A stretch of DNA of 64,000 nt from Rhodospirillales bacterium. Its GTDB lineage: Bacteria > Pseudomonadota > Alphaproteobacteria > Bin95. The DNA is taken from the NCBI GenBank assembly GCA_008081395.1, contig VMCJ01000071.1:27420-91419 (forward strand), written 5' to 3'. This document shows, piece after piece, positions 5,181-28,923 of this stretch; positions within the stretch are counted from its first letter, which is position 1; each line of letters starts with the position of its first letter. The notes beneath the pieces were generated by a model. The model saw only the letters and a program-made list of their open reading frames with translations. It was not told the origin of the DNA and did no database searches. Both the position numbers and the translations under genes were made by a program.

Positions 5181-6686
5181 TTTCCCTTGAGTTTCTCGTT
5201 GCGGCGAGCTTTCTGTCGCTTGCTTGCTCTTAACCTGGCCATCAATGGTAGCTCGGCGACGCTGACCTCCAGCAAACTGCAGTTCTACTTTTCGGCCAGG
5301 CGTAGCAGCAGAAGGTGACGTTATAACGTCGCTTCCATCACGAACTAAAACAAATCCTCGTGCAAGGGTATTTTCAGGTGAGTAGCTTTCGAGCAGCCCT
5401 GCCAATTTATCTAATTGAACCTGCCCATCATCTAGTTTCCGGGTTATCGCCCCCACCAACCGTCTTACTGGGTCTACGCGATCAAAATTATGGATCTTTG
5501 TTTTAATCGCTGAAGCCAATGCTTGCTGTAGCGCCTGAGACCTTGCTTCCAGCAATTCTTGTTTGGCATCGAGCTGTCTTTGTGGCTTAGGTAGGCCAGC
5601 AGCCAGAGCTGTGATGTGATCCTGTCGCCTATTTAGCCCTGATAGCAATGTAAATTTAAGTCGCTCTGTCCAATCATCTAACCGCTGAGAAACTGTATCC
5701 AATAATCTTGCTGGATCCGAAAGGCCCCGCGCAAGCCCCAAAATTTTTTCTGACCGATGGCTTAAACCTCGAGCGATACCATCATCGAGACGAATAGAGA
5801 GCCGGCCAGAGTTTGCCATTAGATCCGTTCGAACTGGTACAGCTAATTCTGCTGCTGCAGTTGGAGTTGGCGCTCTTTTATCGGCAGCATAGTCAATCAA
5901 AGTGGTATCTGTTTCGTGTCCAATAGCGGAGATTAGTGGGATAGAAGAACTCGCAGCCGCGCGCACAACGGCCTCCTCATTAAAAGCCCATAGATCTTCC
6001 AGGCTCCCGCCACCCCGAGCCACAATTAATACATCCGGCCTTGGAACTGATTGACCATGCGTGATCGAATTAAACCCTTGAATAGCAGTAACTATCTCCT
6101 CAGCTGCTCCCTCTCCTTGAACACGCACGGGCCACACAATGATACGTCTTGGGAAGCGATCGCGGACCCGATGTAAAATATCACGTATTACAGCTCCTGT
6201 CGGCGAAGTAACAATCCCAATCACATCTGGAAGAAACGGTAAAACCTTCTTTCGATCAGGACTAAAAAGTCCTTCGTCGGCCAATTTTTTGCGTCGGTCT
6301 TCTAAAATCTTCAAAAGAGCGCCCACGCCAGCAGGCTCCAATGCCTCTACCACTATCTGATAGACCGAACGCCCCTCATAAGTGGTGATCCGCCCTGTAG
6401 CTATAACTTCGAGGCCATCCTCTGGTTGGGTTGGAGATTTGCCAGCTTGCCCCCGCCACATGACGGCATCAATTACCGCCTTTTCATCCTTGAGCCGAAA
6501 ATACCAGTGGCCAGAGGTGGCCCGCTTAGCACCAGAAATCTCTCCACGCACCCGAACATGCGCAAAGTCGCCTTCCAGCGTACGCTTGATCGAACGGGAG
6601 AGGTCGCTAACGGAAATAGTAGGATTGTTGCTAGTGACCTGAGTAGGTTCCATCAAGTCATCCAGAGGGTCGCGTTTCGTTTCCAT
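5172..6686 (-). CDS. xseA: Exodeoxyribonuclease VII large subunit
   Basis: OB-fold N-terminus (VRVRGEISG), catalytic core and long C-terminal helical region; convergent 9-bp overlap with the copA end. Confidence 0.85.
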
Positions 6687-6733: not shown

Positions 6734-7999
6734 TTGCGCGTACTTGTCGTAGGATCCGGAGGTCGTGAACATGCATTGGTTTGGTCCATCGCTGCGTCAC
6801 CACTTGCCACAGAAATTTATTGTGCACCAGGTAATGCTGGCATTGCCGAAGACGCTATATGCGTTCCTATACAAGCAACAGATGTTGATGGGCTAGTAAG
6901 CTTTGCCCAAAAAGAGAGAATAGACCTTGTAGTAATTGGGCCAGAGGCGGCGCTTGCAGCAGGGCTTGCTGACGCACTGGAAGCTGAAGGGCTATTAGCT
7001 TTTGGCCCATCCGCTAAAGCAACAGAAATCGAGAGCTCCAAAGGGTTCATGAAAGATCTTTGCGCTCGAATCGGCGTTCCCACGGCTGCATACAAGCGGT
7101 TTGATGACCGCGAAAAGGCTGCCGCTTATGTACGCGATGAGGGTGCCCCTATAGTAGTAAAAGCTGATGGCCTTGCGGCTGGAAAGGGCGTTGTCGTCGC
7201 TCAAACAGTCGAAGAAGCTCTGAAAGCAATAGATGCCTGCTTTGATGGTTCTTTCGGCGATGCGGGGGCTGAAGTCGTAATTGAAGAATGCTTAGTAGGC
7301 GATGAGGTTAGCTTTTTCGCTCTGGTAGATGGTCAAGACGCACTTCCTTTCTCCTCTGCTCAGGATCATAAGCGCGCCTTTGATGGCGATATTGGACCAA
7401 ACACAGGTGGGATGGGAGCTTATTCTCCTGCCCCGATGATGACTGAGGAGATGACCGAGACCGTCATGTCAGAAATTATCCGTCCTGTAGTGGAAGCTAT
7501 GAAAGATGATGGACGGCCTTTCAAGGGAATTCTCTTTGCGGGCCTTATGATGACTGACAGCGGACCAAAGGTCATAGAATTTAACGCTCGTTTTGGAGAC
7601 CCGGAAACTCAGGCAATACTGCCTCGCCTGCGATCAGATTTCTTACCCGCTCTAGTTGTCGCTGCTGAAGGTGGTCTAAAGCACTTTGATTTACGCTGGA
7701 AAACAGAGAGTTGTTTAACTGTTGTCATGGCCGCCAAGGGATACCCTGGCAGCTACGAAAAAGGATCTATTATTCGTAATATTGAGGCAGCAAACGCAAT
7801 TAAAGGCGTGACAGTCTTCCATGCTGGAACAGTGCAAGCAGACGATAATATTCTGAGCGCGGGCGGCCGAGTGCTGGCGGTTACTGGAGAGGGACAAGAA
7901 CTGAAGGATGCTAGAGACCTGGCTTATTCAGGGATTGAATCCATTGATTGGCCAGAGGGCTTCTGGCGCAAAGACATAGGACACCGAGCTCTAAAGTAG
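6734..7999 (+). CDS. purD: Phosphoribosylamine--glycine ligase
   Basis: MRVLVVGSGGREHAL N-terminus and ATP-grasp core; 421 aa. Confidence 0.9.
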   Translation: MRVLVVGSGGREHALVWSIAASPLATEIYCAPGNAGIAEDAICVPIQATDVDGLVSFAQKERIDLVVIGPEAALAAGLADALEAEGLLAFGPSAKATEIESSKGFMKDLCARIGVPTAAYKRFDDREKAAAYVRDEGAPIVVKADGLAAGKGVVVAQTVEEALKAIDACFDGSFGDAGAEVVIEECLVGDEVSFFALVDGQDALPFSSAQDHKRAFDGDIGPNTGGMGAYSPAPMMTEEMTETVMSEIIRPVVEAMKDDGRPFKGILFAGLMMTDSGPKVIEFNARFGDPETQAILPRLRSDFLPALVVAAEGGLKHFDLRWKTESCLTVVMAAKGYPGSYEKGSIIRNIEAANAIKGVTVFHAGTVQADDNILSAGGRVLAVTGEGQELKDARDLAYSGIESIDWPEGFWRKDIGHRALK

Positions 8000-12190: not shown

Positions 12191-13063
12191 TTGGACGCAC
12201 TTTCTTTTCAGCTTCTTTTTAATGGACTTGTTCTGGGAGCTGGATATGGCGTCTTGGGGCTCGGTTTTGCACTAACGCTTAGGGCTGCCGGTGCAGTTAA
12301 TTTTGCTCATGGGGATGTTGCCGCAGTAGCAGCCTATGGTGGGGTAACTGCAGTATTATTTGGGGCGACCGGGGTCCTTGCTGTTGGGGTGGCAACACTT
12401 GTAGGTGGAGCTTTAGGGCTTGTAGTGGCCGCTATTGCATGGGCACCTCTCCGTCAGCGCCCAGTAGAATCTACTTTCATAGCTGCCATCGCTTTAGGAA
12501 TAGTGGCACAAAATAGTTTAACTGTTGGTTTTGGCGGTGCGCCTCGAGCTTTGCCGGCTATTTTGAGTGGTGGATGGCGCCTTGATGGGCTTTATTTATC
12601 TGCCCACGGCATAATCTCTTTAGGAATGGCAATATTTGCCTTTACGTTTACAGCACTCTTGCTACTTAAAAGTCGATTTGGAATGCGGCTTCGCGCTGCC
12701 GCAGAGGATCCAGAAATAGCTGCTGCCCATGGGCTTCCTGTTATAAAGCTAGCAATATTTGCCTTCGTTTTTGCTGGAATTCTATCGGGATTGGCCGGAG
12801 CCATCTTATCCACCCAACATTATGTCACTCCTGCTGTTGGAGCTATTTACATTCTCAAGGCTTACATCGCTGCAACGGCCGCAGGATGGGGCCGAATCTT
12901 TCCAACTGCATTAATTGCAGTTGCTATTGCGCTATTTGAAACTATCGGAGCGGCGCTGTTCTCTCACGCTGTAGCAGAAGGTGTTCTTTATCTAGCTTTC
13001 CTAACACTGCTAGTTTTCCGACCAGAAGGTTTAGCTGGAGACGTCAGAGGACGCCGCGTATGA
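12191..13063 (+). CDS. livH: Branched-chain amino acid ABC transporter permease (LivH-like)
   Basis: Polytopic membrane protein; 290 aa. Confidence 0.8.
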   Translation: MDALSFQLLFNGLVLGAGYGVLGLGFALTLRAAGAVNFAHGDVAAVAAYGGVTAVLFGATGVLAVGVATLVGGALGLVVAAIAWAPLRQRPVESTFIAAIALGIVAQNSLTVGFGGAPRALPAILSGGWRLDGLYLSAHGIISLGMAIFAFTFTALLLLKSRFGMRLRAAAEDPEIAAAHGLPVIKLAIFAFVFAGILSGLAGAILSTQHYVTPAVGAIYILKAYIAATAAGWGRIFPTALIAVAIALFETIGAALFSHAVAEGVLYLAFLTLLVFRPEGLAGDVRGRRV

Positions 13064-14577
13064 GTCCATATGACCTGCATTTGCTTACATTAGCATTAGC
13101 TTTGGCAGCTGGTGCCATAGGTTGGCAAATTATATTTGGCCTTGCAGGAGCTCTATCGCTTGCCGCGGGAACAGCGATGGGACTAGGGGCATATGCTGTT
13201 GTCCTTCTAGCGCTTAAACTTGATTTGCCCTACGCCGTTGCCGTTCCCACCGCAGCTCTTATAGCCAGTCTAATTATTGCGGCTATGGGGGTCGCCGCTG
13301 CGAGGCTGGAAACTCACTACTTTGCTCTTGCCACACTCGCTATGGCGGAAGGAGTAGTATTAGTTGCTATTAACTGGGAAAGCTTGACTGGTGGGGCTAA
13401 TGGGCTCCTCGGTCCTACCCCTCCAGATTGGCTCTTAGATGATCAAGGCAAATTGTTCTTATCCGCATCGGTAACTCTAATCGCAGTATTCATTTATTCA
13501 TCATTTAAGCGATACGCTGGGCAAGAAAAGCTAGCTCTATTGCGTACACAACCATTGGCAGCAAAAGCTTTTGGAATAAATGGTCCACAAACAAGACTTA
13601 TAGCCATGCTAGCGGGTGGACTGTGCGGTGGTTTGGGAGGGGCGATACACGCACTTGCAGTTGGTGTTGTGTCCCCAGACATCCTGTCATTTAAAACAAT
13701 GGCCGCTATTCTGGCAGTGGTTCTTATTGGGGGGCGTTATAGTCCTTTAGCAGCTGTAATAACCTCGATTGCAGTTACTTTTGGGCCAGAATACCTGAGA
13801 TTTTTGGAAGATTCCTATTTGATCTTTTATGGCCTTCTTCTCCTTCTAGCTATTTTATTTCTTCCTACTGGCATAGCAGGGCTTTTCCCCAAATTTTCTC
13901 TTATCAGGTCCTCAAATAAGAAAGCCGAAAAATTTCCTATAAAAGATGAAATACCGCTGCGATCACAGGGACTCCACCGAAGTTTTGGCGGTTTAACTGC
14001 TGTGAATAACGTTTCTCTGAACCTTAAAAAGGGAGAAATTGTGGGCCTTATCGGTCCAAACGGGGCGGGAAAGTCAACGCTTCTCAATCTGCTGTCTGGC
14101 ATCGATCGACCGGATTCCGGTCAGATTGAACTAGCGTTCGGTGTTCGAATTGGTCGAACCTTTCAAACACCCGCATTAATTGAGGATGAAACAGTTGACG
14201 GTAATTATGCAGTGGTGGGCTACAAAAACAACGACCGGCGCCTGGTAAAATCCCTTTCGCAGAGCGAGCGTCGTTTCGTTGAGATTACCAGGGCACGTGA
14301 ATACGCCAACGGGGTCGTTCTGCTAGACGAACCTGCTGCCGGTCTCTCATCCGATGAACGCAGTAAACTAACCGAAGAAATTAGGAAATTAGCAAAAACT
14401 GCGGCTGTGGTGATAGTGGAACACAACGTTCCTTTCGTTGCTAAACTTGCTGATCGGCTCGTGTGCCTTTCGGAAGGTCGTATTATTGCTGATGGAAAAC
14501 CAAAAGACCTTGTTCGTAACCCTATCGTAGTTTCTGCATACCTAGGCGCAGCGATGGATTTAGGACATGAACAATGA
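13060..14577 (+). CDS. Fused LivM-like permease / LivG-like ABC ATPase
   Basis: Residues 1-290 are polytopic membrane; C-terminal ~200 aa carry Walker A GPNGAGKST, Walker B VVLLDEP and a degenerate signature (LSQSERR). Confidence 0.8.
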   Translation: MSPYDLHLLTLALALAAGAIGWQIIFGLAGALSLAAGTAMGLGAYAVVLLALKLDLPYAVAVPTAALIASLIIAAMGVAAARLETHYFALATLAMAEGVVLVAINWESLTGGANGLLGPTPPDWLLDDQGKLFLSASVTLIAVFIYSSFKRYAGQEKLALLRTQPLAAKAFGINGPQTRLIAMLAGGLCGGLGGAIHALAVGVVSPDILSFKTMAAILAVVLIGGRYSPLAAVITSIAVTFGPEYLRFLEDSYLIFYGLLLLLAILFLPTGIAGLFPKFSLIRSSNKKAEKFPIKDEIPLRSQGLHRSFGGLTAVNNVSLNLKKGEIVGLIGPNGAGKSTLLNLLSGIDRPDSGQIELAFGVRIGRTFQTPALIEDETVDGNYAVVGYKNNDRRLVKSLSQSERRFVEITRAREYANGVVLLDEPAAGLSSDERSKLTEEIRKLAKTAAVVIVEHNVPFVAKLADRLVCLSEGRIIADGKPKDLVRNPIVVSAYLGAAMDLGHEQ

Positions 14578-16556: not shown

Positions 16557-17453
16557 TCAAGTGTATTGGTGTGGCCGTTTAGTCAAACGAGAGATTAAAA
16601 ACTCTAATTGATCGTAATCTTTGTAATGCAAAACAAGGCGGCCGCCCCGCTTGCCAACTGGCTGTAGAGCAGCTTTGAGACCAAGCGCATCACTCAGATC
16701 TTTCTCTGCAGACACGACATTTGGGTCTCTACTAGAGGGTTTTCGGGGTGCTTGCATACCGCCTTCTTGCACCAATCGCTCGGTCTGACGCACATTCAAT
16801 CCACGTTGAACCACTAGTTCAGCAAGTTTTTCTGGGTCTTTAGCCACCAGCAATGCTCTCGCGTGACCCGCAGATAAACGACCTTCCGCCACATAGGTAC
16901 GAAGTGTTGGTGGAAGATTTAGAAGTCTCATCATGTTGGCTACATGAGGTCGGCTCTTACCAACCGCTTTAGCTAAATCCTCCTGGGTATAGCTAAATGA
17001 ATCCACTAAGTTCTGATAACCATTAGCCTCTTCGATTGGGTTCAGATCTTCCCTTTGAATATTTTCGATCAAAGCAATTTCTAAGGCATCACGATCCGTC
17101 ATATCCCTTAAAATTACTGGAACCTCTGCCAAACCCGCCCTTTGAGCAGCTCGCCAGCGTCGTTCACCAGCAATAATTTCATAACCAGACAGCTCGCCAG
17201 ACAGCCTTCGAGCAATGATGGGTTGTAACATTCCACGCTCACGAATGGATTGAGCAAGTGCGTCTAAAGCTTCTTCATTAAAATGTCGTCGAGGCTGTCC
17301 ACTACCAGGCTGAAGTGATGCAACAGGTAGAGACCGGGTGGCTTTATTGGTAGCACTGCCCTCAGTCACGTGGTCTGAACCATCTTCTCCCAGTAACGCA
17401 GCTAAGCCGCGACCTAGCTTTGGACGAACGGATTTATTTTCGACAATGCTCAT
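16557..17453 (-). CDS. parB: Chromosome partitioning protein ParB
   Basis: ParB box region (GERRWRAAQ), HTH and C-terminal dimerisation domain; translationally coupled to parA. Confidence 0.9.
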   Translation of the reverse strand: MSIVENKSVRPKLGRGLAALLGEDGSDHVTEGSATNKATRSLPVASLQPGSGQPRRHFNEEALDALAQSIRERGMLQPIIARRLSGELSGYEIIAGERRWRAAQRAGLAEVPVILRDMTDRDALEIALIENIQREDLNPIEEANGYQNLVDSFSYTQEDLAKAVGKSRPHVANMMRLLNLPPTLRTYVAEGRLSAGHARALLVAKDPEKLAELVVQRGLNVRQTERLVQEGGMQAPRKPSSRDPNVVSAEKDLSDALGLKAALQPVGKRGGRLVLHYKDYDQLEFLISRLTKRPHQYT

Positions 17454-18313
17454 GCTGCCACCACCTTAACTGACCCACCTGGTAATAAACCTTCACGTTG
17501 CAAAAACTCACGGGCTAAATCCAGATATGCCCTGCTACCCGTGCAATTAAGATCGTAGAGCAACACAGGCTTTCCATGGGACGGAGCCTCCGAGACTCGT
17601 ACATTCCTTGGAATCTCCGCTTTATAAACAATGTCACCAAAGTGTGCTCTCACATCGGCCGCAACGGCTTCAGCCAACCGAATTCTCCTGTCCATCATTG
17701 TTATCACAATGCCCTCAAGAGCTAACTCGGGGTTTAATCGCTCGGCAACCAGATCAATTGTTCTCTTCAAATGACTTAGCCCCTCAAGCGCAAGGAACTC
17801 GGCCTGCAGTGGGGCAAAAGCGCCATCTGCAGCAACAAGCGCATTTAAAGTCAAAAGGCCAAGCGACGGGGGACAATCAATTAAAATAAATGAGTATCCT
17901 AGTGGTCCTGATTCGCTTTTTGCTTGGTTTAAAGCATCTGCTAACCGGCGCTCCCGCCTCGGCATATCTACCAATTCGATTTCTGCACCAGACAAATCCA
18001 TCGTAGATGGAACAATGTCAAAGAGCGGCATCTCAGTCTTAAACGCTGCCTCAGCAAGGCTACACTCGCCAATTAAAACATCATACACCCCAACCTTCCG
18101 CCGATTGGCTGGAATTCCCACTCCGGTCGATGCATTTCCCTGTGGATCTAAATCAATTACGAGAGTTCGCTGGCCGCAAGCAGCTAAAGCAGCCGCAAGA
18201 TTAACTGCGGTAGTGGTTTTGCCAACACCGCCCTTTTGATTAACTACTGCAATAACGCGAGGCAATCTTTCCTCATGAGCGTCATCATTTGTATCAGAGT
18301 TTATTTGCGTCAT
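17450..18313 (-). CDS. parA: Chromosome partitioning ATPase ParA
   Basis: Deviant Walker A KGGVGKTT; 4-bp overlap with parB. Confidence 0.9.
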   Translation of the reverse strand: MTQINSDTNDDAHEERLPRVIAVVNQKGGVGKTTTAVNLAAALAACGQRTLVIDLDPQGNASTGVGIPANRRKVGVYDVLIGECSLAEAAFKTEMPLFDIVPSTMDLSGAEIELVDMPRRERRLADALNQAKSESGPLGYSFILIDCPPSLGLLTLNALVAADGAFAPLQAEFLALEGLSHLKRTIDLVAERLNPELALEGIVITMMDRRIRLAEAVAADVRAHFGDIVYKAEIPRNVRVSEAPSHGKPVLLYDLNCTGSRAYLDLAREFLQREGLLPGGSVKVVAA

Positions 18314-18962
18314 CCGGCCTTAGACACCATATCTTGAGTATTATACCCTCATCAGAGGTAATACTAGGGATCATTTCATATTTCATTGTCCAGCTTTTCA
18401 TTGCTTCGGTCAATTCTTTTTCGACCTGCGCCCCCTTGTGCATCAAAGCGAAACCAGAGGGTTCAAGAGCCCCATAGATAAAAGGTAAAAGTCGAACCAA
18501 AGGAGCTACAGCCCTCCCAGTTACAAACTGGAATTTGCCGAAAGCCACATTCTGTAAAGCTTTATCAAACCGCTCTGGTATTACACGCACATCAACACCA
18601 GCATGCCTTGCAGCTTCACGAAGAAAAACTGCTTTTCGTTGATCACTATCTACCAAAGTTATGGGCAAACCACTGATGCAAGATAGCACAAGGCCAGGAA
18701 AACCAGCACCAGAGCCAAAATCCACCAAAGCACTTGAACCTGGGCTTTCCCCTAATAAGGGAAAGACCTGCGCAGAGTCCAAGACATGTCTGGTCCAAAT
18801 ATCATTTAAATTAGCTGGGCCAATCAGATTGATCCGTTGACGCCAGCGATCTAGCACAGAAACGTAACGAACAAGCCTCTCTATGCTTAAATCGTTAACA
18901 CCAAACTTTTCTAACGCATCACGCACATCATGAGGGGGCTGGAATTCAATTAGGGGGCTCAC
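18294..18962 (-). CDS. rsmG: 16S rRNA (guanine527-N7)-methyltransferase RsmG (GidB)
   Basis: SAM-MTase motif [11 protein letters not shown]; sits between mnmG and parA. Confidence 0.85.
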
Positions 18963-20848
18963 GACGCCATGTCAGCCCTGCGATTAGCTCTGACACGGCG
19001 CAACAAAGCTGTAATCGCAGCAGGAGTTACCCCCGGGGTCCGTGCAGCAGCTCCAATCGTCCGCGGCCTTGATGCAGTTAACTTTTGTCGAGCTTCGGTA
19101 GATAACCCCTCTATCTTCCAGAAATCGAGATCATTGGGCAATTCCATCGTTTCGTCGCGCTTGAAAGCCGCAACATCAGCCTCCTGCCGAGCGAGATATG
19201 TTGCATACTGGGCATCAGTAGATAGGCTCTCACGCGCCCACATCGGGGTATCCGCTATTTGCGGCCAAAGCGCCAGCAGTCCTGTCGAAGATGGACCAAA
19301 TCGCCCAAACAACTCCAAAGCTGTTCGGCGTTTGCCGTCAGAACTACCAGGCAATCCAACTGCCTCTAATTCAGAAGGTGATGCCGTTAGTGCGTTAAGC
19401 TTAGCCTCAAGGGCCTCCAATGCATTTTGTTTCACGTGAAACAAGTGCTGTCTGGGCTCTCTCACACACCCCAACTCTATTCCACGACCTGTTAATCGCC
19501 GATCAGCATTATCCGCACGAAGTCGCAACCTAAATTCAGCTCTCGATGTAAACATTCGATATGGCTCATCGACTCCTCGCACAACAAGGTCATCAATCAT
19601 GACACCCAAATACGCCTCTGTGCGATCAAATATTGCAGGGTCGTTGCCCCCTACTGTTCGGGCTGCGTTCAATCCGGCAACCAGGCCCTGAGCGGCTGCC
19701 TCCTCATATCCCGTGGTGCCGTTGATTTGGCCCGCTAAAAATAGCCGGGGTATCCGCCTTGTCTCTAAACTGTGATCCAGCTCCCTTGGATCAATAAAGT
19801 CATATTCCACTGCATAACCTGGTCGGGCTATTTCTACCGCCTCTAGACCTGGAATTGTTTGAAGGAACGCACGCTGCACATCTTCTGGCAAGCTCGTCGA
19901 GATTCCATTCGGGTATATAAGGGGGTCATTTAAGCCTTCTGGCTCAAGAAATATTTGATGATTATCTTTGTCAGAGAACCGGGTTATTTTATCCTCAATC
20001 GAAGGACAGTACCTTGGCCCCGACCCACTTATATTCCCACTATGAATCGCCGATTCATTAATCCGCGACCGAATTATGTCATGGGTCTTTGAGGTCGTGC
20101 GAGTAATATGGCAGACCGTTTGGGGTACCGTTATGCGTTCGGTGAGAGCCGAAAATGGCTCCGGAGGGTCGTCCCCTAATTGTGGCTCTAACACGTCGAA
20201 CCGAATGGTCTCCTTAAGCAACCGAGGCGGTGTGCCTGTCTTAAGTCGCCCCATTTGAAACCCTGCCACCTCAAGGCGCTCCCCGAGAACCGTTGCCGCC
20301 GCATCACCAACCCGGCCCGCTGGGCTGTTTTTGGTGCCTATATGGATAACGCCTCGGAGAAACGTACCGGTTGTAATAACTACAGCGCCCGCAACCAGCT
20401 CTTCTCCTGTTTCCATTCTGACGCCAGAGCAGTGCCCTTGGCCTGAAACCAAAATGTCAGCCACTGCTCCTTCCAAAACGCTTAAGTGGGTTTGTTCTTT
20501 TACTGCTTCTTGAATTGCCTCCCGATACAACGCACGATCTGCTTGAGCACGCGGACCGCGCACTGCCGGCCCTTTGCTGCGGTTTAAAACACGGAACTGA
20601 ATACCTGATGCATCTGCCGCACGCCCCATAATCCCATCTAGAGCATCAATTTCACGAACAAGGTGTCCTTTTCCAAGGCCCCCTATAGCTGGGTTGCAAG
20701 ACATCTCACCAATACGATCAAACCGATGGGTGATCAGCAACGTTTTCGCGCCAAATCTCGCCGCCGCGCCCGCCGCCTCAACACCGGCGTGGCCTCCGCC
20801 AACAACAATTACATCATAGTTATTTTTTATTTGTTTCACGTGAAACAC
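18959..20848 (-). CDS. mnmG: tRNA uridine 5-carboxymethylaminomethyl modification enzyme MnmG (GidA)
   Basis: N-terminal FAD motif [12 protein letters not shown]; 629 aa; GTG start at 20848. Confidence 0.95.
19428..19443. promoter_or_regulatory. parS centromere-like site (perfect TGTTTCACGTGAAACA) inside mnmG
   Basis: Exact 16-bp palindrome matching the ParB-binding consensus; it encodes FHVKQ in mnmG. Confidence 0.8.
20832..20847. promoter_or_regulatory. parS centromere-like site (perfect TGTTTCACGTGAAACA) spanning mnmG codons 1-6
   Basis: Exact 16-bp palindrome immediately inside the mnmG GTG start; it encodes M-FHVKQ. Confidence 0.8.
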
Positions 20849-20850
20849 CG

Positions 20851-22152
20851 TTATTTCCCAATGCAGAACGAAGAAAATATTCGATCTAGCACGTCCTCTA
20901 CATCAACAAGCCCGGCTATGCGCCCCAGAGCACGGCTAGCAAGCCTTAAATCTTCAGCTGCAAGCTCCAATGCGGGGGCTTCCATAGCACGATTAATTGC
21001 AGCAACCACCTCTTCTAACGCGACGCGATGGCGATGCCGCGTTGCGAGGGGCCTCGGCGCCCCTTCAATCGCAGTCTTTGCTGCTGCGGTCAATTCCCTT
21101 TCTAAATCCTTAAGCCCTTCTCCCGTCTTTGCAGACCCACTAATCCCATTTGGTGGTTGTATTGAGGAAAGGTCTTTCTTGTTATGAAAAACCAATCGAT
21201 TTTCCGGAAGTTTGGCGAGTTCTGCGGGTGAAAGAATATCTCTAACTTCAACCACAAGGTCCGCTAAACCTTGTGCGTCGTATGCACGACGGACACCCTC
21301 TCGCTCAATTGGATCCTCAGTTTCTCTAAGGCCCGCTGTATCAACAATGGTTACAGGGTATCCATCCAAGTCCATTCGGACCTCAAGGATATCGCGGGTT
21401 GTTCCAGGTATGTCAGTGACAATTGCTGCATCACGGCGCGCCAAGGCATTTAAAATGCTAGATTTACCTGCATTAGGTGCTCCCACCAATACAACGCGAA
21501 ACCCTTCAGATAGTCGTTCGGTTACAGGACTATTCGATAAATAATGACTTAAGGTTTCTTTTAATTCTAGAATTTCCATCTTCCATCGGCCTTCTAGGTC
21601 CTCTGGAACAGGCTCGTCTGAAAAATCCAATTCAGCTTCTGCCAGAGCAGACGCAGAAATCAGAGTTTCACGCCATGATAAGTGCTGCGCCGTCAGCCCT
21701 CCTTGCATTTGCCATAACGCTTGTCGTCTAGCTGCTGCGGTATCAGCACTTATCAGATCCCCCAGGCCCTCAGCTTCTGCAAGATCCATCTTGCCGTTCC
21801 GATAAGCGCGTCGCGTAAACTCCCCAGCTTCAGCTGGACGAAACCCTTGCAGGTTCGAAAGGGCAGCGAGAACACCATCTATAACTGCTGGGCCGCCGTG
21901 AATATGAAGCTCAACTGACTCCTCGCCAGTAAAACTTCTAGGAGCCGGGAAATACAGGGTTAACGCTTTATCAAGTACCTCTCTATCAGAGTTATACAAT
22001 TTCCTGAGAGATGCCTTGCGTGGCAGCGGAGGACTCATGTGCGTTAAAGCATCAAATACGCAGGCTGCTTCTGGGCCTGAAATCCGTATCACAGCCACCC
22101 CAGACTGGCCCGCACCAGAAGCACAGGCGAAAATCACATCTCCTGCAGTCAT
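20851..22152 (-). CDS. mnmE: tRNA modification GTPase MnmE (TrmE)
   Basis: G-domain motifs GAPNAGKSS and DTAG; C-terminal CIGK tetrapeptide. Confidence 0.9.
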
Positions 22153-22166
22153 GATTTATTCCTGGT

Positions 22167-22442
22167 TTAATCCGAACCAGATTGCCGAGATTTAGCGCCC
22201 GAGAAGCTTGTTTGCATCGCTTGTTCCCAAAACTGACGCACCGACTCTATGCCTTGACTTGCACCTGCGGCTCCAGGCATCCATTGGCTCCACAGCGCCT
22301 CAGGTTCCATGTTGGCTAAGCTCGTGCGCATTCTTTCTGTCATCTCTGAAAGCAAGGCGTCTTGCATGGGTCCTACGTCTGGTAACCCAAAAAACCGGCG
22401 GGCCTCTTCCGGCGTGGCGTCAATGTCGATGCTTATTTTCAT
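22167..22442 (-). CDS. Small hypothetical protein (91 aa), first gene of the mnmE-mnmG-rsmG-parAB operon
   Basis: ORF with no motif I recognise; co-oriented 14 bp upstream of mnmE. Confidence 0.4.
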   Translation of the reverse strand: MKISIDIDATPEEARRFFGLPDVGPMQDALLSEMTERMRTSLANMEPEALWSQWMPGAAGASQGIESVRQFWEQAMQTSFSGAKSRQSGSD

Positions 22443-22535
22443 AGAGATAACTCCAATAAGTCTGCCTTACGCTACATAATAGCGTTAAATTAAGTGCTTA
22501 ACACATAAGATATCGAGGAATTACCGTGATAGCCC

Positions 22536-26247: not shown

Positions 26248-26697
26248 CTAAAATGGTTTTACAACAACCATTATTACAATAATTATCATCGATATTGTGG
26301 GCACTTCGTTGGCTACTCTGAAGTATCGTTGGCTTTTCCGGTTCGTCCCTTCCGCTAGATCCTTGCGCCATTTGCCCATGGCATGATGGCACCCTGTTAA
26401 AACCAAAATCGCCAGAATTTTCAGCCAAATCCAGCCAGAGCTCCAATCAACAATGCCAGGTGTGAGTATCAACAAAATTCCAAATATGTACGAAACTACC
26501 ATCGCGGGATTCATTATAGCGCGCAGGAGTCGGCGCTCCATAACTTGGAATCTATGATCTTCTATCGAATTTAATTCGACTTCTACGTGATACACAAAGA
26601 GCCGAGGAAGATAGAGAAGTCCAGCCATCCAAGACATCACCGCAATAATATGAATTGCTTTGAACCATGGATAACTTCCTATGAGGAATTCACTCAT
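26248..26697 (-). CDS. hemJ: Protoporphyrinogen IX oxidase, HemJ family
   Basis: HemJ signature N-terminus WFKAIHIIAVMSWMAGLLYLPRLFVYH; 4-bp overlap with hemE. Confidence 0.8.
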   Translation of the reverse strand: MSEFLIGSYPWFKAIHIIAVMSWMAGLLYLPRLFVYHVEVELNSIEDHRFQVMERRLLRAIMNPAMVVSYIFGILLILTPGIVDWSSGWIWLKILAILVLTGCHHAMGKWRKDLAEGTNRKSQRYFRVANEVPTISMIIIVIMVVVKPF

Positions 26698-27731
26698 GCG
26701 CTATCCCTAATTCTTTTAATAAGAGCTTCTACATTAGCTATTGGTGTCTCGGGTGTAATTCCATGACCTAAGTTGAAAATAAACGGTGAGTTTCTGTTGG
26801 AGTTAAGAATGTTATCAATCTCTTTAATAAGGAAATCACCCCCACAAATTAATGTAACTGGATCTAGATTACCTTGTGGTATCGCCCCAGCTTTACGAAC
26901 ATGGTCAAACGCTTCTGTAGGTAAAGATTGACCCAATGACACAGCATCAACTGCTGGCAAAGCCGCAAAATCACTAACAAATGCATCCGCCCCTCGCGGA
27001 AATGCTATCACTTTAGCACCTGGATGAGCTGCTTTGACAATTTGTGCTATTCGACCAATAGGTTCCAAACTCCATGCTTTCACACCATAAGCCGGCAATG
27101 CGCCAGCCCAACTATCAAATATCTGCACAACTTCGGCCCCAGCTTCGATTTGGTTGATCAGATGTTTGGATATTGCTGACTCCAATAAATTTAGGAGTTT
27201 TGACCATGCGCTTGGCTTTTCTAAAGCAAACTTTCTCGCTTTGGCGTAATCGCGACTACCCGCACCCTCAATCATATAAGCTGCAAGCGTCCAAGGAGCT
27301 CCTGCAAATCCAATAAGCGCGGTTTCCTTTGGAAGCTTATTTCTGGTTTGTGTCACAGCGGAATAAACTGGTTTGAGAAATTCTGTTACCTGTCCAAGAT
27401 CCAAATTGTTCACGTCATCCGATGTATTTAAGGCATTTAATTTTGGACCAAAGCCTGGTTCAAACCATACTTTTTGCCCAAGTGCATGAGGTAAAACCAA
27501 AATATCAGAAAAAATTATTGCAGCATCAAATCCAAAACGGCTTATCGGCTGCAAAGTTGCTTCAGTCGCCATATCAGGCGTGTAACAAAATGTTAGAAAA
27601 TCTTTCGCTTGTGTTCGAAGCTTGCGATATTCGGGTAGATAACGACCTGCCTGACGCATTAGCCACACAGGGGGTCTTGGCGCTGCTTTGCCACTAAGAA
27701 CAGAAGATAAGAGATTTTGAGTTTTCATCAT
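26694..27731 (-). CDS. hemE: Uroporphyrinogen decarboxylase
   Basis: URO-D N-terminal motif PVWLMRQAGRYLPEY; 345 aa. Confidence 0.9.
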   Translation of the reverse strand: MMKTQNLLSSVLSGKAAPRPPVWLMRQAGRYLPEYRKLRTQAKDFLTFCYTPDMATEATLQPISRFGFDAAIIFSDILVLPHALGQKVWFEPGFGPKLNALNTSDDVNNLDLGQVTEFLKPVYSAVTQTRNKLPKETALIGFAGAPWTLAAYMIEGAGSRDYAKARKFALEKPSAWSKLLNLLESAISKHLINQIEAGAEVVQIFDSWAGALPAYGVKAWSLEPIGRIAQIVKAAHPGAKVIAFPRGADAFVSDFAALPAVDAVSLGQSLPTEAFDHVRKAGAIPQGNLDPVTLICGGDFLIKEIDNILNSNRNSPFIFNLGHGITPETPIANVEALIKRIRDSA

Positions 27732-27999
27732 GGTGACAAGGAATATCTTCTTATTCTGTTAAATAACACTACTAAACAAAACTTAATTTAATATTGATTG
27801 TTGTAGTTAGAGTGACTGATATCGGGGATAAAAACTCTAAGCAAAAAATTGCTAACAGGATAAAAAAAAACCTCCATTCGTTGATTTACAATAGACAGGG
27901 CAATCGACTCGTTAAATTTATTAAAGACCTGAAGGAAGTATCCTGTGGAAGTATCAGGGATAGGTTTTTTTCCCCTCAATTATCAATTTGGATTTCCAC

Positions 28000-28008
28000 T
28001 GTGGATAT
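28000..28008 (-). promoter_or_regulatory. DnaA-box candidate (revcomp ATATCCACA, 8/9 to TTATCCACA)
   Basis: TGTGGATAT on the plus strand, inside a CCACTGTGG palindrome. Confidence 0.5.
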
Positions 28009-28040
28009 CACGACTGAAGGAAATATCTGTTATGAGGGGA

Positions 28041-28049
28041 GTATCCACA
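28041..28049 (+). promoter_or_regulatory. DnaA-box candidate (GTATCCACA, 8/9)
   Basis: Inverted relative to the box at 28000-28008, 32 bp apart; weaker boxes at 28069-28077 (TCATCCACC) and 28081-28089 (TTATCCTCT). Confidence 0.5.
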
Positions 28050-28194
28050 ATGAGAAAAAAGATACATTTCATCCACCTGTTTATCCTCTACTAGTCCACC
28101 ATTTCTTCCATATATGTGCATCGCTTTGAGGGAGATTTTTTTTACGTTTTAGTCATTAAGATTCGTTTTGACGTTTGTTGTAGGTGGAATATTT

Positions 28195-28317
28195 TCAAGA
28201 TATTTTTTATCTTTTTAACTATTGTTACGATGTATAAAAATGTACTCATAAATAAATGAAGTAAAAATAAATAAAATATAAATAATAAATATATATATAT
28301 GTAGGAAGGTAAATATA
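28195..28317. other. Candidate DNA-unwinding element (almost pure A/T run) abutting the maf start
   Basis: taaaaatgtactcataaataaatgaagtaaaaataaataaaatataaataataaatatatatatat; a near-exclusive A/T stretch. Confidence 0.4.
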
Positions 28318-28923
28318 TTGAAGACACTAAAGCCAATTATATTAGCATCTGCGAGCCAATCACGACGGTCTCTTCTATCTGCATCTGGTGTTGAATTTGA
28401 TGTGGTTGTCTCGAATGTCGACGAAGACGAGATTAAAAACATAGCCAAGCAAGATGGTTGGACTGTTTCAAAAACGGCTTTGGCTTTAGCTGCTGCAAAA
28501 GCTGAAGCTGTTCAAACTATGCATCCCGAGGCAATTATCATTGGTGCTGATCAGATGTTAGAACTTGAAGGTAATTGGTTTGACAAACCTTCTTCTGTGG
28601 AAGTTGCAAAAAAACAGCTTGAAGCTCTTCGTGGTAAGACCCATCGACTTCTTTCAGGCCTAGTTTTGCTTGCACCGGAAAAAGAACGCTGGACCCATAT
28701 TGAGTCAGCAGATCTAACAATGAGAAATTTTTCGGATACTTTTTTAGATAGTTATATCCAAACTCTTGGGGAAGAAGCCTGCAAATCTGTAGGTGGCTAT
28801 TTTCTTGAAGGTCTAGGGGTACAAATGTTTGATCAAGTGAGGGGAGACTATTTCACTATATTAGGTCTCCCTATGGCACCTCTTCTTAATGCACTTCGAT
28901 TAGAGGGGGCATTATTATTATGA
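28318..28923 (+). CDS. maf: Maf-family nucleoside triphosphate pyrophosphatase
   Basis: Maf N-terminus ILASASQSRRSLL; TTG start with AGGAAGG RBS. Confidence 0.85.
   Translation: MKTLKPIILASASQSRRSLLSASGVEFDVVVSNVDEDEIKNIAKQDGWTVSKTALALAAAKAEAVQTMHPEAIIIGADQMLELEGNWFDKPSSVEVAKKQLEALRGKTHRLLSGLVLLAPEKERWTHIESADLTMRNFSDTFLDSYIQTLGEEACKSVGGYFLEGLGVQMFDQVRGDYFTILGLPMAPLLNALRLEGALLL

Follow-up and report, generated by a model that had tools for sequence, protein, structure and literature searches.

The window analysed here, the whole 64,000-nucleotide stretch of contig VMCJ01000071.1 of a Rhodospirillales bacterium, contains a cluster of six co-directional genes, DUF6489-mnmE-mnmG-rsmG-parA-parB, in which neighbouring genes either overlap or are separated by no more than 14 nucleotides (nt). 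One of them, mnmG (gidA), holds two copies of the perfect 16-bp palindrome TGTTTCACGTGAAACA, which are candidate parS sites for the partition protein ParB. The two sites, their host gene and the gene that precedes it are as follows:

20832..20847, no strand assigned: candidate parS, start-site copy, at the mnmE/mnmG junction, overlapping mnmG codons 1-6 (exact match and sequence context).
19428..19443, no strand assigned: candidate parS, internal copy, at codons 469-474, L-F-H-V-K-Q (exact match).
18959..20848, minus strand: mnmG (gidA), host of both sites (NCBIfam TIGR00136, 784 bits, E 1e-235; PDB MnmG matches, E 5e-185).
20851..22152, minus strand: mnmE (NCBIfam NF003661, E 1e-159), with the C-terminus FCIGK*.

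An exact search placed both palindromes at the coordinates given for them in an initial annotation of this DNA and found no third copy; no further site appeared in the 64 kb when up to three mismatches were allowed, and 100 dinucleotide-preserving shuffles gave 0 matches to TGTTTCACGTGAAACA. Each copy agrees at every position with the 16-bp parS consensus, TGTTNCACGTGAAACA, as quoted in PMC2346475 and PMC4409726. Translation confirmed that both copies lie inside mnmG in the minus-strand frame xTG TTT CAC GTG AAA CAA and encode FHVKQ: the start-site copy gives V/M-F-H-V-K-Q at codons 1-6, the GTG start at 20848-20846 included, and the internal copy, 1.4 kb into the gene, is aligned with R-F-N-E-K-L of E. 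coli MnmG in the PDB alignment. The shared frame, to which the initial annotation had drawn attention, is unremarkable, because one frame of the palindrome reads TGT TTC ACG TGA and so has a stop; on either strand an intragenic parS is therefore possible only as V-S-R-E-T or x-F-H-V-K-Q/H, and with only two usable frames a common frame of both copies is uninformative.

At the 5' end of the gene, mnmE ends as ...F-C-I-G-K-TAA-cg-GTG, with the GTG of mnmG 2 nt past the mnmE stop, and the first base of the palindrome is the second of this GTG, whose G is at 20848. Both candidate mnmG starts fall in the start-site copy, one at GTG 20848-20846 and the other at GTG 20839-20837, the in-frame codon 4. 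We compared the DNA of the window with that of eight further lineages (nine sequences) on an mnmG codon alignment, in which five lineages have ATG as codon 1, three, the window among them, have GTG, and L081 has CCG. L081 also has an in-frame TGA upstream, so translation there must begin at the GTG that corresponds to codon 4 of the window; the internal GTG can therefore be the sole usable mnmG start, as the L081 example illustrates. From the palindrome to the Rossmann strand (Y/F)DV(I/V)V(V/I)GGGHAG, none of the nine lineages has a further in-frame start, and the mnmG initiation codon must accordingly lie inside parS in every member. Because the segment between parS and the Rossmann strand differs among the nine lineages by multiples of three in length, and in sequence too, the data fit a junction parS that would have been absorbed into the mnmG reading frame and given the gene its start codon. 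In public gene calls, identical or nearly identical mnmG genes are assigned different starts, given as MFHVKQ..., as VKQ/MKQ... (from the internal GTG) or as MKNNYD... (P0029, P0032, P0033, P0048 and P0049), and a start inside parS explains this disagreement.

The eight relatives are 67-85% identical to the window in MnmG protein and 61-74% in mnmG DNA, and of the third-codon positions just 3% stay unchanged in all nine sequences, the other 97% varying. The start-site parS is nevertheless the longest invariant run in the gene (15 nt) and the core of the internal parS the second longest (10 nt, the next longest being 8 nt). The internal copy is a perfect 16-mer in eight of the nine lineages and has three mismatches in L090. 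Conservation ends sharply at the edges of the 16-mers and the flanks are fully diverged. When each genome's own mnmG codon usage is considered, the joint probability of meeting TTT-CAC-GTG-AAA for F-H-V-K every time is ~1e-33, a figure that is overstated by taking the lineages as independent, although its direction is not in doubt. The third-position G+C content (GC3) of these genomes ranges from 0.43 to 0.81, and the A/T-rich codons of the sites were kept nonetheless. Additionally, a homologue search gave 89 clade MnmG proteins at 67-100% identity and 31 outgroup proteins at 65% or less. FHVK[Q/H/R] is present in nearly all of the 89, around residue 470 and/or at the N-terminus, and the N-terminus reads MFHVK[Q/H] in most of them, the exceptions being for the most part genes called from another start, such as MKQ... 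from the GTG within the palindrome. FHVK is absent in 30 of the 31 outgroups, only P0092 having FHVKR at the internal position; outgroup proteins have shorter N-termini and an internal position of the F-x-x-K type (FEAK, FARK, HTVK...). The same two sites were also found in dozens of independent metagenome assemblies.

Since synonymous sites are saturated while the 16-mers stay invariant between scrambled flanks, selection acts on the DNA and not on the peptide. The rank of the sites as the most conserved 16-mers of the gene, the codon-usage test and the outgroups that lack the peptide all point to selection independent of coding, and the constraint on both 16-mers is one on DNA (formally on DNA or RNA). 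The dual constraint proposed in the initial annotation thus holds, both 16-mers being invariant or nearly so, and parS is kept across species at the two positions. In five relatives the mnmG pair makes up the sole sites at up to three mismatches within 22 kb, relatives having between 2 and 4 sites per 22-kb neighbourhood against the 2 of the window. The pair thus appears to form the centromere core of this clade.

Immediately downstream of mnmG lie the genes of the presumed binding protein and its partner:

18294..18962, minus strand: rsmG (gidB), TIGR00138 above the curated cutoff, with a 4-nt overlap with the mnmG stop and a 20-nt overlap with the parA start.
17450..18313, minus strand: parA, partition ATPase (ParA/MinD-family NCBIfam matches, all below their curated cut-offs).
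16557..17453, minus strand: parB, presumed parS-binding CTPase clamp (TIGR00180 above the cutoff, below the Noc cutoff).

The parA start (18313) is 1.1 and 2.5 kb from the two copies and the parB start (17453) 2.0 and 3.4 kb. The syntenic parA gene of relatives has Pfam ParA/CbiA/AAA_31 matches. Against the PDB, ParB matched best to the Caulobacter ParB chain in 6T1F (E 3e-63), and the box II CTP motif GERRWRA is conserved in this alignment. Once the +10 offset that separates the chain index from Caulobacter numbering is allowed for, the protein has R/M/N/G at the equivalents of Caulobacter positions 173/179/184/201, which places it in the RxxG class. In this regard, R173 and G201, both of which contact parS, are shared by all ParB orthologs, whereas positions 179/184 vary among ParBs, with lysine in Noc (PMC7383237). 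Judged by its sequence, the protein is a canonical parS-type ParB, and the locus would supply the sites with a cognate ParB that has the DNA-binding interface and CTP box II, together with a ParA partner. A sigma-70-like hexamer pair, TTGACC-17-GACAAT, is found within rsmG (18413-18385, minus strand), ~72 nt before parA starts, as a consensus match only; it could be an internal promoter of parAB, such as other gid-par clusters are reported to have.

Further upstream of the cluster lies the putative replication origin, with the genes that border it:

27732..28317, no strand assigned: putative origin, AT-rich hemE-maf spacer of 586 bp (low GC, GC-skew minimum and DnaA-box-like 9-mers).
26694-27731: hemE, bordering the spacer.
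28318-28923: maf, bordering the spacer.

The 2-kb interval over this spacer has a GC content of 39%, the lowest of the 64 kb, and the spacer sits at the cumulative GC-skew minimum; it contains DnaA boxes with one mismatch at 28000-28008 and 28041-28049 as well as A/T-rich runs. A position next to hemE is the classical alphaproteobacterial origin site, and the spacer is probably the origin. It lies 6.9 and 8.3 kb from the two parS copies, which would make them origin-proximal as well as close to parAB, and the distances put forward in the initial annotation (~2-3.5 kb from parAB, ~8 kb from a putative origin) are borne out by the coordinates. In most relatives beyond the 85% group (L081, L083-L085, L087, L088 and L090) a PF03618 kinase/pyrophosphorylase gene of 278 amino acids (aa) stands between hemE and maf; the spacer of the window is too short for this gene, and the open reading frame (ORF) at 27794-28129 has no Pfam match.

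Altogether, the exact consensus, the rarity of the sequence, a base-level conservation that exceeds coding needs, the canonical parAB and the proximity of the origin lead us to conclude that the two 16-mers are very probably chromosomal parS, centromere-like sites at which ParB, whose gene lies 2-3.4 kb downstream, would be loaded. The identification made in the initial annotation is upheld in its canonical consensus and its adjoining parAB. ParB dimers would recognise each palindrome through their helix-turn-helix domains, bind CTP, close as a clamp and slide onto flanking DNA. A partition complex would thereby form over mnmE-mnmG-rsmG-parAB, ~7-8 kb from the origin, and ParA-ATP would pull the complexes apart once replicated; by analogy with other bacteria, SMC is probably loaded there too. 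Because the sites lie within an essential-type housekeeping gene, the DNA requirement would determine the stretch of protein encoded there. At the 5' end this would be the work of the junction parS, taken into the mnmG frame right after the mnmE stop and supplying the start codon, and the codon 469 site falls at the variable F-x-x-K position, presumably the start of the MnmG C-terminal helical domain.

Several points weigh against this interpretation. ParB binding, spreading and a segregation function at these sites are predictions made from sequence. The site count spans the 64-kb window, and more or stronger sites may lie elsewhere in the genome. ParB has M/N at positions 179/184 where the Caulobacter protein has T/A, these being positions reported to vary among ParBs. 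Furthermore, the internal mnmG site of L090 has decayed to CGTTCCACGTGAAACG, with three mismatches, and both L081 and L090 have additional one-mismatch sites beyond parB, which together indicate that individual sites turn over within the clade. The sites related to this turnover are:

L090, 11400-11415 and 14709-14724.
L081, 14344-14359 and 16264-16279.

A wider comparison of 80 species-level loci showed that parS recurs at mnmG borders in several phyla. In two Gemmatimonadota (L025 and L066, at 5944-5959 in each) the parS variants TGTTCCACGTGGAACA / TGTTCCACGTGAAACA follow directly on the mnmE stop, still upstream of the mnmG ATG; the window has its start-site parS at this same mnmE/mnmG junction, so that the junction site is either ancient or has arisen repeatedly. 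In a Paracoccus (L018) parS overlaps the mnmG GTG start at this junction, and in L002 it is read in the mnmG N-terminus as M-D-V-S-R-E-T. Azospirillaceae-like metagenome-assembled genomes (MAGs) have parS at another position in mnmG, in the VSRET frame and ~310-312 nt before the stop (L004 1704-1719, L021 7548-7563), which implies an independent placement within the same gene; in L005 (5719-5734) the contig ends before the mnmG stop, and the aligned residue is ~518-522. Additionally, other alphaproteobacteria have parS at the rsmG 5' end, read as V-S-R-E-T, with VSRETLERL in L002 (7961-7976) and two tandem copies in an Acetobacteraceae MAG (L010, 5804-5819 and 5831-5846). The Paracoccus locus has a further parS at 7871-7886, 8 nt after the mnmG stop, which by manual parse is probably in the rsmG N-terminus. 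The VSRET peptide may be a widespread footprint of parS embedded in RsmG N-termini.

The initial annotation had also suggested that ParB spreading might be coupled to expression of the operon. In this case the sites would double as a brake within the operon: RNA polymerase that comes from the mnmE-side promoter would be hindered on its way into rsmG-parA-parB by ParB bound or clamped at both sites, the mnmG start and codon 469, which would exert negative feedback on the levels of ParA and ParB. Such a role is unlikely. The six genes are co-directional and so closely spaced that read-through transcription must cross both parS. However, CTP-bound ParB clamps slide, and to our knowledge they are not known as strong roadblocks. 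Neither site overlaps a promoter: a promoter and terminator scan of 16.3-23.1 kb found no minus-strand promoter-like match at either parS, promoter-like matches in this region were no commoner than in shuffles, and the hexamer pair in rsmG could drive parAB independently. A similar proposal has been made for the mycobacterial parS at the gidB promoter and in parA (PMC2346475), and slower elongation across a ParB1-covered operon has been suggested in V. cholerae, but in the same bacterium the gidAB and parAB1 promoters are both free of regulation by ParA1/ParB1, and of 20 ParB-covered genes just 2 are silenced (PMC4010829). Plasmid-like operator autoregulation, with parS overlapping a par promoter, is not supported either, one copy standing at the 2-nt mnmE/mnmG junction and the other 1.4 kb inside a gene. 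We likewise consider it improbable that the mnmG pair is both the only centromere of the clade and a conserved intra-operon control point, at which ParB occupancy or an mRNA hairpin would set MnmG translation and parAB read-through. If true, this would be an autoregulatory loop for chromosomal ParABS, so far not established for chromosomal systems.

Alternatively, the palindrome could act mainly as RNA, a hairpin on the mnmG start codon tuning translation or mnmE-mnmG translational coupling. The 16-mer does fold as a 6-bp hairpin with a 4-nt loop, in which the first GUG is paired and the second lies partly in the loop, but this hairpin is weak (-3.9 to -4.7 kcal/mol) and the 91 nt around the start are no stabler than shuffles (z = -0.77). 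An RNA function would also leave unexplained the internal copy far into the gene and the identity with the parS consensus, homologous parS are found in untranslated spacers of other phyla, and compensatory changes, which a hairpin would tolerate, were not seen in the nine-lineage alignment. An RNA element was therefore rejected as the main explanation, for which it is very unlikely, and the hairpin may have a side effect on mnmG translation.

Even less probable, and rejected on the synonymous-site conservation and the outgroup comparison, is a constraint at the peptide level, in which MnmG would need FHVKQ at both places and the parS match would be a coding by-product. It is true that both copies are in frame and translated, the start copy at least partly, and that F and K of the internal site are also present in outgroups (F-x-x-K). 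Against this, the synonymous positions within the 16-mers are invariant where nearly all other third positions vary, their codons run against the usage of each genome, and E. coli MnmG and the outgroup proteins (all but one) have neither FHVK nor the N-terminal extension. Moreover, the first half of the start-site parS of L081 cannot be translated from any start codon and is still conserved. Chance occurrence or an assembly artefact can be dismissed, given the absence of matches in shuffles and the presence of the same sites in dozens of metagenome assemblies and eight diverged lineages.

The chromosomal setting of the two parS is itself conserved. The order hemE-hemJ-rho-...-ogt-DUF6489-mnmE-mnmG-rsmG-parA-parB is kept in most of the relatives examined, L087 having no called ogt homologue, and with ogt left aside it holds in all of them. 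The first gene of the cluster is:

22167..22442, minus strand: small DUF6489 gene, with a 14-nt gap to mnmE.

This gene stands directly upstream of mnmE in all clade relatives examined. A promoter for the operon is likely in the 93-bp spacer (22443-22535) toward the divergent ogt gene. On the other side of the cluster, a 505-aa ORF (13060-14577) joins a LivM-like permease and a LivG-like ABC ATPase in one frame, and such a fusion is also called in L081 and L090 (499-525 aa, BPD_transp_2 + ABC_tran).

These results would give a clean centromere assignment for an uncultured alphaproteobacterial lineage, and a textbook-quality case of a DNA-binding site that overrides codon choice and shapes a protein N-terminus. 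Its points of interest are the deep conservation of both positions across the clade and a centromere sequence that supplies the mnmG initiation codon. FHVK[Q/H] and VSRET in MnmG and RsmG N-termini could serve as quick markers of embedded parS. In addition, parAB lies downstream of the sites, probably in one transcription unit with them, so that the feedback hypothesis can be tested. The arrangement itself is a known one with no new mechanism, and the understanding of ParABS is unchanged by it.

Intragenic parS are familiar from several bacteria, and those of B. subtilis reportedly include a copy inside spo0J. A search of the literature on parS together with gidA or mnmG, which did not take in the gene-level tables of Livny et al. 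2007, found no paper naming mnmG as a parS host or describing an overlap with a start codon. In P. aeruginosa, nine of ten parS lie within genes, and synonymous changes were used to inactivate them (PMC4368675); as in the window, parS there lie mostly in coding sequences, so that a dual constraint of coding and binding is accepted, but the sites are in various genes and often imperfect, and neither clade-wide conservation of position nor start-codon overlap is described. Caulobacter crescentus shares the alphaproteobacterial gene neighbourhood and a matching geometry, with parS on one arm ~8 kb from the origin, adjoining parAB, a cluster that Caulobacter ParB occupies (Tran et al. 2018, PMC5815017). 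Caulobacter ParB (6T1F) is also the closest in sequence to the ParB of the window, but Caulobacter has seven sites of varying quality over ~8 kb, whereas the window has two perfect ones in 64 kb, both in mnmG. M. tuberculosis and M. bovis BCG as well as M. smegmatis share with the window two perfect TGTTTCACGTGAAACA, 1-2 kb upstream of parB in the gidB-parA region and one of them in coding sequence; one site is at the gidB 5' end and promoter and the other in parA, and modulation of gidB/parA expression by ParB has been proposed (PMC2346475). In mycobacteria one of the two sites overlaps the -10 element of a promoter, unlike those of the window, which are off promoters and in mnmG, a gene that the mycobacterial cluster lacks (PMC2346475). 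The parSc of Thermus thermophilus is likewise a consensus parS within a gid coding sequence, directly upstream of parAB and near the origin, in a genome with few sites, but there is just one such site, placed in rsmG (gidB) and not mnmG (gidA) and off the start codon (PMC4409726). Intragenic parS in the gid-par cluster are thus already documented, in gidB of Thermus, in gidB/parA of mycobacteria and in P. aeruginosa, and the pair in mnmG takes its place beside them.

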